A DNA stretch of 64,000 bases, taken from positions 26,600,001-26,664,000 of the forward strand of contig CM097885.1 in assembly GCA_044892525.1 (NCBI GenBank), written 5' to 3'. Below are positions 41,668 through 44,346 of the stretch, one piece after another. The notes under the pieces are model-generated. The model was not told the DNA's origin. It saw only the letters and a program-made list of their open reading frames with translations, and did not search any database. Numbering within the stretch: the stretch's first letter is position 1; each line of letters begins with the position of its first letter. A program made the position numbers and the translations under genes. Origin of the DNA: Schmidtea polychroa. Lineage: Eukaryota.

Positions 41668-44346
41668 GGAGATGTTGTCAAATAAATTTCTTGTGAATGA
41701 ATATGGAGTGAAAAAAATTAGTAAATTATATTAAAAATCCATTATAGCAACCGAAAGGTATAAAACATACGATGAACATAGACATATAAAGAACACAGAA
41801 TACGTTAAATAAATAGACAAGCAACACAGCAATTAGAACTAAAATCAGAATTGAATGCAGGACTGATCATAGTCGCATGAGTGAGCTGGTCGATAAGATC
41901 AGTACGAATTTTATTTCCAATTTTCTTTTCTTCCTGTTTTGTTATTTTGGCATAAAGAGATACGATAATGAGGGGATGACAAGTGAATCGTCCTTACGAC
42001 ACTTGCCCGGATGGGGAAATCCTGATCACCCTGATGAGAGAATGTAGTAGGATCCATCGCAAATGTTGGGGAGTTTCTGTCCAGTGACTGATCACCACTT
42101 GTGGGAAACGAACCAACGCGATTATTATATTTTTTTGTCTGGGAGACGGGGACTAACTAAAAGGGTGAATAAAAATAGAAAAATAAAATAAAAATTGAAA
42201 AACGCGCGCTAAATGTTAAAAATTTAATCCGAGAGCAGCTGCGGATTTGAAGAAACCGTTTTTGGACTTCAAATCAGATGAGAATAATGATTTTTCCCTA
42301 GCGAGTGATGAGGCACCCGAGTACAGCGGCTAACCACCGGACTGTAGTGTCCAGGAGATTATCGGCCAAGGGACTGATGATGCTGGATCACCCAATACAA
42401 AAACCCGGATGCCACACCGAGTATTGGGCGCACTTTTTTGAGTTGCTAGCGGGACTTGATACAAAAACCCGGAAGGGTAGCGAGCGAGAGAGACCCAGTT
42501 ACCTACACCGAGTATCAAGGAGCCCAGTGAAACGGTTGTGAGATGCGAGTCAACCGGTAAAGAACTCGTACTCAACAGGCAACCAAGATTGGACCAGTTG
42601 TGAGGCGGGAGACCGAGAGTCAACTGCATACCCAATTTCCTTTTAGCTTCACTAGTCGGGAGATCTGGTTCATCACTTTTGAGAATCACGATCAAGGCGA
42701 TTAGGCATTTCCGTGTTTTTTAAATCCTGATAGATAGGATGTTTTTTCTTCGTGATTATTGCTAGCAGGGGTCGGTACAAAACCCGGATGCCCACACCGA
42801 GTACCGATAGGCCCAGTGAAACGGCGATGAGATTAGAGTTACCGGTATTAGACTCTTTTCAATAAGCGGCCAAGAATTGAGCCAGTTGTGAGGCCTCAGC
42901 AGATTAGGAATTTGAGTAGGAGGAGCCTTAAATTTTTAATTAGTCCAAAAGCCAACTGTCAACTCAATTTAATCGCGGTAGGGACGATAGTAGGGGTAAA
43001 AACCGAAGGCGTCGAGGGGTTGAAGAAACCTCATTTAGGGTATTTGAAACCGGTCAGGGACCGAAGACCGCGAATATGGCGTAATGGTGTAAAAACCCAG
43101 GCGTCTAGGAGTCGTAAAAGACTTCAATTTTGATTAAACCGGCCGGAAGCCGATGCCGACGCGGAGGTCTAACAAACCAAAGCGTTGATGGGTAATAATA
43201 GATTATATGGCGTAATGGTGTAAAAGCCCAGGCGTCTAGGAGTCGTAAAAGACTTCATGAGATTAAAATGAGTTGATTAAACCGGCCAAGGAGCCGATGG
43301 TAATTGAGTAAAATGATTTAAATGAAAATAAAGGAGTTGAACAAACCGGCCAGAGAGCCGATGGTAAATAAAGGTGGATGTAGGGTCGCGCGAACCAAAG
43401 CATCAATGATTAACTATGAATTGATTAAACTGAAATAGATTAAGTGCGATAAATATGTAATGAGTAGAGGAGAATTATGATAAAGCGCCGGCGCAAGCGA
43501 AAATTAAACCAGTTTTTGGATGGGGAAAAGCGAACGAATAGATAGTAGTTGAATTATTGAATTTTATTTATTAATGATATGTTTATTTTGATATTTATGT
43601 GATTAATATTATATTTCTATGATAATAATAAAAGGGATAGATAATTGATACGACTATATAGATAATTGATACGAGTTATAGATAATTTAAAATCAACTTA
43701 AAATCAAAATGGGGCGAATAGCGAGAAGTGTAGAAAAGCTAGAAAATTTGAAGCGAAGGGACAGTAAAATAAAGGGAAAAGGGAAAGTAAATGAAGGGTT
43801 TAATAAAGAGAATTTATGATATGTACTAGAGGTGTTAATTATTTTAGAATAAAGCAAACAATTCAGAAAGAAATCAAAGAAATCAAGAAAGCAATAGAAA
43901 TCAAGAGATATAGAGAAATCAATTAGAAGCGAAGAATCAAGGAAATTAATAAAACCAAATCCAAGAAGAGTTAGAGAATCGTAAAGATTAAAGCGAGAAA
44001 AATACTTAGAAAACATCGAGCTCGATTGACAAAGTAGAAAATTTATCAAAGGATATTAAAAAGAGGAAAAATTGATAGCATAGCTAACCGAACGAGGCGA
44101 AAAAGTAAAGGAAACCTCAGTTTATTGGAAAAGGAAGAGATACAAAAGGCCAAGACCAACAGAAAACTACACAGGAAGCCAGCATCAGTAGAAACAGTAT
44201 TTGAATCAGACAGTTTAACAAACGAATTTGAGAACAGCGACGATCTTAAACGAACCGAACTAGATCCGATAAGTGACATTGAATCATCAGACGAGGAAGG
44301 AAATAGTTCAGAGTCAACCAATATAACAATTTTGTGTCAAGAAATA

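Follow-up and report, generated by a model that had tools for sequence, protein, structure and literature searches.

The signals by which LTR retrotransposons package and dimerise their RNA have been mapped poorly, as has been stated for Ty1 and Ty3 (PMC6844567, PMC11381356). The core encapsidation signal of MoMuLV is described as a palindromic hairpin with two adjacent look-alike hairpins (PMC7599994, PMC5874298), and hexamer palindromes in hairpin loops are reported to drive dimerisation in HIV-1, ASLV and Ty3 (PMC5874298, PMC516450, PMC11381356). Burro/GYPSM1 elements are described as giant gypsy-like LTR retrotransposons of planarians (PMC6431247), and BURRO1 RNA is reported to increase upon smedwi-2 RNAi (PMC8532177); the literature that we searched contained no account of Burro leader RNA, the original Burro genome paper, its supplements and the Repbase notes lying beyond that search. 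Leader RNA of the general sort reported here is expected in a retroelement; the particular folds belong to no Rfam family, and we found no paper on them. They were analysed in a 64,000-nt stretch of Schmidtea polychroa DNA (the window, to which coordinates refer unless a locus is named).

The element that carries them starts at 36140 and spans 34,077 bp; its ends are TG...CA, and it has a target duplication of 4 bp. Its 5′ LTR (36140..40461, plus strand, 4,322 bp) is 100% identical to the 3′ LTR, which lies beyond the window (L174:1896-6217). The primer-binding site (40470..40487, plus strand), presumably of the tRNA-Pro type, has 1,087 matches in genome G000 and is common to the family of this element (family A) and two sister families, B and C; no tRNA gene was found in the window. 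The 3.9-kb leader contains an accessory RING-finger ORF (41185..41667, plus strand; Pfam zf-C3HC4_3, E 5e-12) and the three hairpins described below. It is followed by the gag-env-pol polyprotein region (44347..58414, plus strand; first AUG at 44347) with Pfam domains for gag, CCHC, MATH, fusion glycoprotein, protease, RT, RNase H, integrase and ankyrin, its frame being broken near 54.35 kb in the window copy, and by TRAF and BIR ORFs 3′ of this region. With more than 30 kb and long LTRs, CCHC knuckles in Gag, MATH, an env-like gene, PR-RT-RH-IN, ankyrin and BIR, the element matches a Burro-type giant Gypsy; the description fits Burro/GYPSM1.

Several further features of the locus were recorded. 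Two small ORFs within the LTR (39017-39382 and 39728-40063) have basic C-terminal parts and homologues in four of the six other family A LTRs examined; neither matched a Pfam family, and the first ends in an RKRGRPRK stretch which we take to be AT-hook-like. In the accessory ORFs at 41185, 59108 and 60673 the AUG directly follows a T-rich stretch and an AG, as though a separate splice or trans-splice acceptor served each of them. Four motif-bearing copies at G000:C1:39421839-39471575 are spaced 15.8 kb apart, below the length of a full element, and may be a deleted form arrayed in tandem. The host DNA upstream of the element holds a HEAT-repeat reading frame (24301-25218), presumably deoxyhypusine hydroxylase-like.

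The initial annotation had described three hairpins with a common core and 8-bp closing stems of different sequence, at 42391-42428, 42455-42519 and 42771-42808, and all three were confirmed on the sequence. Folded alone, each consists of the 8-bp stem and a CGG/CCG stem with an A-rich internal loop between them, closed by a loop of the form AU(G/A)CC(C)ACA or by an inserted stem. Folding z-scores of hairpins 1 to 3 were −2.6, −3.3 and −2.5 on the plus strand and −2.1, −1.9 and −1.8 on the minus strand. At the five stem positions that vary among the three paralogues all 15 pairs are standard (rough chance 4e-7), and four of these positions have changed on both sides. The core pattern has 1,163 matches in G000, distributed over about 390 elements and mostly three per element, while the reversed control gave none; patterns with other closing bases, aimed at more distant versions, gave six, one and no matches there, and those that were aligned proved to be altered family A copies. 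No match was found in viral contigs. The 15 matches in metagenomes and 16 in prokaryote genomes were judged to be chance, all 31 being single and having at most four further pairs outside the core. The initial annotation had recognised no Rfam family in the motif, and this was borne out: the best Rfam 15 hit in 41900-43450 reached 19.7 bits against a threshold of 40, nothing in 38000-48000 came near threshold, and four homologous loci gave no match at E≤1.

The motif proved larger than had been claimed. Copy 1 (42391..42428, plus strand) consists of this hairpin, termed module I, only, whereas copies 2 and 3 are embedded in larger plus-strand units in which module I is followed by a predicted H-type pseudoknot (module II) and a further hairpin (module III). 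Unit 2 (42443..42608, 166 nt) comprises module I with the inserted stem (42455-42519), the pseudoknot (42533-42569) and module III (42573-42600); the corresponding parts of unit 3 (42759..42896, 138 nt) lie at 42771-42808, 42822-42856 and 42860-42888. The second stem of the predicted pseudoknot differs in sequence between the two units with its pairing kept. A covariance model of units 2 and 3, run over 27 sources, returned nothing but both units of the window and a single match at E 9.5. The stems of copies 2 and 3 have a probability of 0.94 in long-range folds. That of copy 1 has a probability of 0.93 when pairs are limited to 100 nt and of 0.05 in the fold of 42290-42960 with unlimited span, because its 3′ arm can pair with 42316-42324; most of 11 other copies that were folded (17 tried) have the same tendency.

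This alternative partner lies within the most conserved block of the leader (42295..42390, plus strand), in which two of 96 columns have a shared change and which also contains a degenerate fourth copy (42322-42346); alone, this fourth copy folds weakly (z −0.6). Four further short AAC-CGG-loop-CCGA hairpins follow downstream (43045..43365, plus strand; at 43048, 43137, 43280 and 43344), some of them within a 131-nt repeat. Within 42291-43400 there are six instances of the shorter AAC(C)CGG-N7-9-CCGA core; the remaining 62.9 kb have none on either strand, and shuffled sequence showed it at most once in 2,000 shuffles. The structured region has a GC content of 48%, richer than its flanks. This 131-nt repeat (43074-43330), which holds two further hairpins, varies in copy number among elements. 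In addition, a ATAGATAATT repeat at 43637-43674 is common to families A and B and is the leader sequence best conserved between them by BLAST.

Selection on the array was assessed in an alignment of the window and 75 other copies, a non-random sample picked by similarity or motif patterns, from which the window's own locus, three duplicate loci, the partial L034 and L165 and the truncated L148 were left out. Among paired-site changes common to at least three copies, 11 of 12 leave the pair intact, compared to 15 of 53 rare changes (p 8e-5), a count that takes in helices drawn after the copy sequences had been viewed; for module I and the pseudoknots alone the figures are 5/6 and 13/39 (p 0.03). 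For the originally claimed stems alone the difference was not significant (1/1 vs 3/15). Most pair-keeping changes turn a G-C or an A-U pair into G-U, and this identifies the plus strand as the structured one. Pair 42837-42854 in the pseudoknot shows a full compensatory path from AU via GU to GC (AU 67, GU 4, GC 4 and AC 1 among 76 sequences); a stem-breaking change at 42568 is common to five copies.

Shared-variable columns number 2/38, 15/163 and 6/136 in the three units compared to 177/483 in the RING ORF and 108/292 in the region behind it, a regional contrast that may be distorted since the copies look mosaic. Natural deletions are mostly confined to single copies and do not delimit the needed region. 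As another cause of conservation we considered an antisense ORF (42330-42719), which was rejected: 44 of 68 copies keep it open over more than 120 codons, and its length changes fall in all three phases. The compensating changes, the G-U-keeping changes, the low variation and the plus-strand bias support the original claim of selection on RNA structure, and we conclude that the three hairpins are real and selected as plus-strand RNA.

About 250 nt upstream of the hairpins lies a conserved stem-loop of ∼120 nt (42027..42146, plus strand), which the initial annotation did not contain and which is conserved more deeply than the hairpins, being found in families A, B and C (the window, L057, L047 and L128). 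Its folding z is −3.6 on the plus and +0.15 on the minus strand. Among 34 distinct sequences from the three families, which are related so that pair changes are not independent events, 17 of 37 pairs have changed on both sides and 97.8% of cells pair, compared to 33-50% in slid controls; the covariation score is 0.51 vs at most 0.14 for the controls, a stronger signal than that of the three hairpins. Two palindromes are predicted to be exposed, GGAUCC unpaired in a bulge (42050-42055) and UGAUCA in the 9-nt apical loop (42087-42095). Of 108 matched loci, 106 have a palindromic hexamer in the bulge (GGATCC 64, GGGCCC 21, GGTACC 21). The apical loop reads R-Y-UGAUCA-C in 107 of 108 matches, an invariance that is partly by construction because UGAUCA was in the search patterns; unselected support comes from 52 of 54 family A copies (L034 left out) and from 17 of the 19 family B loci that had been chosen by primer site. 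As in a dimerisation site (DIS) of the HIV-1 SL1 type, a hexamer palindrome is predicted to lie unpaired in the apical loop that caps a conserved, covarying stem; purines on both sides of the palindrome are absent. The HIV-1 DIS loop has a nine-base geometry. The predicted fold and its covariation make the stem-loop a candidate dimerisation site.

Sister families were defined from 40 primer-site loci without a nearby motif, found among the first 100 of the 1,087 matches, of which 19 belong to family B, 20 to family C and one to neither. Searching family B and C representatives with the covariance model of units 2 and 3 gave nothing credible. At the position of the array, family B carries one to 19 small hairpins per locus (e.g., L057 (+) 1928-2370), with a covarying stem pair that is CG in 133, UA in 71 and UG in four of 208 units. 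Family C has an unstructured 13-nt tandem repeat of very variable length in this place (three loci read; L128 990-1640), so that such an array is not a universal requirement, given that this family replicates with the 13-nt repeat only. The family C leader measures ∼7-9 kb from primer site to conserved stem-loop.

Upstream of gag, a putative splice acceptor with the sequence pattern TTATTTTAG (43818..43847, plus strand, its AG ending at 43847) lies just 3′ of the ATAGATAATT repeat. The 499 nt that follow it contain no ATG compared to 8.3 expected; this stretch forms the longest ATG gap (526 nt, the next being 314 nt) in the part of the element within the window, which has 672 ATGs. Six of six further family A copies have the acceptor and then a long AUG-free run (428-523 nt), as do 17 of the 18 family B loci and six of the seven family C loci in which the acceptor pattern matched (19 and 14 loci in all, respectively), and the run before gag measures 420-670 bases across the three families. 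Since 96 ATGs lie between the primer site and the gag AUG, plain scanning is impossible. These patterns suggest that splicing, in cis or onto a spliced leader, leaves the gag-pol mRNA devoid of the structured region; the acceptor-like site and the AUG-free run make it likely that the array is absent from gag mRNA. SL trans-splicing occurs in flatworms. No conserved splice donor was identified among 14 weak candidates, a search for processed spliced copies, a weak test, gave no matches, and four contig sets showed no junction that bears on splicing. The gag frame is open for 79-103 codons upstream of its AUG, and given this open frame gag may also be initiated at a non-AUG codon.

A selected repeated fold next to a dimerisation-like stem-loop, in a region that is likely confined to full-length RNA, resembles a packaging region. 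Judging from sequence, we consider the chances evenly balanced that the three hairpins are the family-specific part of the packaging/dimerisation region of a Burro-type element. In this proposal, gag-pol would be translated from RNA spliced in cis or trans to the acceptor at 43847, so that 42027-43400 would be present in full-length RNA only. Two full-length RNAs would kiss via UGAUCA and the GG..CC palindrome, and Gag/NC or a bridging protein would recognise the repeated A-rich bulge and CGG/CCG stem, with several copies of the motif giving avidity and the pseudoknot and third hairpin positioning them. Since the apical palindrome is common to the families and the neighbouring array differs between them, the array could enable Gag to tell its own RNA from that of the sister families. 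More tentatively, we suggest a two-part, retrovirus-like genome selection that was built independently, in which a universal two-palindrome stem-loop is combined with a swappable family array as identity code, on a genomic RNA distinct from the spliced Gag mRNA.

It is possible, if doubtful, that the array serves instead as an export or splicing-control element for unspliced RNA, by analogy with RRE/RxRE elements and a small basic LTR-encoded protein, or with the CTE and host NXF1. Such a role would suit its place within the inferred intron and its repeated internal loops, which are of a protein-binding type; the LTR encodes two small basic proteins (39017-39382 and 39728-40063), for which family-specific RNAs would be fitting partners if they too are family-specific, and the CTE, the RRE and the RSV direct repeats are described as precedents (PMC12789967, PMC5035971). 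However, neither the array nor the two proteins matched an Rfam or Pfam family, respectively, and the array adjoins the palindromic stem-loop, which favours packaging.

We consider it rather unlikely that the pseudoknots are xrRNA-like exonuclease-blocking or stabilising folds, or that the conserved block is a conformational switch of RNA fate, with no direct role in packaging. The conserved pairing of the two predicted H-type pseudoknots and the competing fold of copy 1 with the most conserved 96-nt block would be compatible with this, but there is no Rfam match, and copy 1 and the four short hairpins, all without pseudoknot, would be left unexplained. An IRES domain for gag translation, as the initial annotation had suggested, appears decidedly unlikely: the region is structured, has a higher GC content (48%) than its flanks and precedes a gag AUG that the 96 ATGs put out of reach of plain scanning, but this AUG lies 1,451 nt past unit 3 and behind 28 ATGs counted from 42809, with the acceptor-like site in between. 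Moreover, the conserved acceptor and AUG-free run account for gag initiation by scanning, and no IRES family in Rfam was matched.

Equally among the functions first suggested was a ribozyme. A new self-cleaving one is highly improbable, since cleavage within genomic RNA would destroy it, even though the loop nucleotides are invariant, GAAAC...GUA in both units is like the 3′ half of a hammerhead core and CUGAUGA occurs at 42374; known ribozymes are not supported, as no Rfam ribozyme family matched and no three-helix hammerhead (CUGANGA and GAAA) could be drawn, the best candidate having a minimum helix of 2 bp and no helix I. Least probable of all are DNA-level sites (enhancer or insulator) or neutral duplications, for which the repeated ACCGG words and the factor-binding repeats of Gypsy leaders could speak, but which the compensating and G-U-preserving changes and the plus-strand bias oppose. 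The array is a cis-element of a multicopy LTR element, and the suggested unclassified ncRNA, if meant as a free-standing RNA, is not upheld.

A packaging role of the array would show by what means coexisting families that have the primer site in common keep their RNAs separate, and how genomic RNA and Gag mRNA are set apart in a 34-kb element. For this, short RNA candidates backed by covariation are now at hand in an animal Gypsy element that is abundant, has recently been active and carries an env-like gene.

Compared with Burro/GYPSM1 as described, the element likewise exceeds 30 kb and has Gag CCHC knuckles, MATH/TRAF, env between gag and pol and an ankyrin and BIR cargo, whereas leader RNA structure, a dimerisation site and splicing do not figure in the part of that description available to us (PMC6431247). 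The MPMV CTE, the RSV direct repeats and RRE/RxRE are likewise structured cis-elements for unspliced RNA, some of them repeated, but are described mostly in the 3′ part of the genome, whereas the planarian array lies in the leader and has no Rfam match (PMC12789967, PMC5035971). Comparison with HIV-1 SL1/DIS concerns the stem-loop at 42027-42146 and not the three hairpins: in contrast to the HIV-1 signal (PMC5874298, PMC516450), the planarian stem-loop has UGAUCA with one flanking purine only (R-C before, C after) and a second palindrome in a bulge of the same stem, and the two share no sequence similarity. Ty3 DS/PAL6 also belongs to a Ty3/Gypsy element, which uses a hexamer palindrome borne by a hairpin close to its 5′ end; this hairpin is short, its palindrome is another one, and a repeated array is not part of the account consulted (PMC11381356). 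The start of the array lies 1.9 kb downstream of the primer site, a much greater distance than in retroviruses. GACG tetraloops, the gammaretroviral feature found in MoMuLV SL-C and SL-D, are absent from it. Its modules exceed the MoMuLV ones in size, contain a predicted pseudoknot, sit 250-750 nt away from the stem-loop with the palindromes and have replacements in the sister families. Nevertheless, as in MoMuLV DIS-2, SL-C and SL-D, a palindromic hairpin 3′ of the primer site is followed by look-alike hairpins with conserved loops (PMC7599994, PMC5874298).
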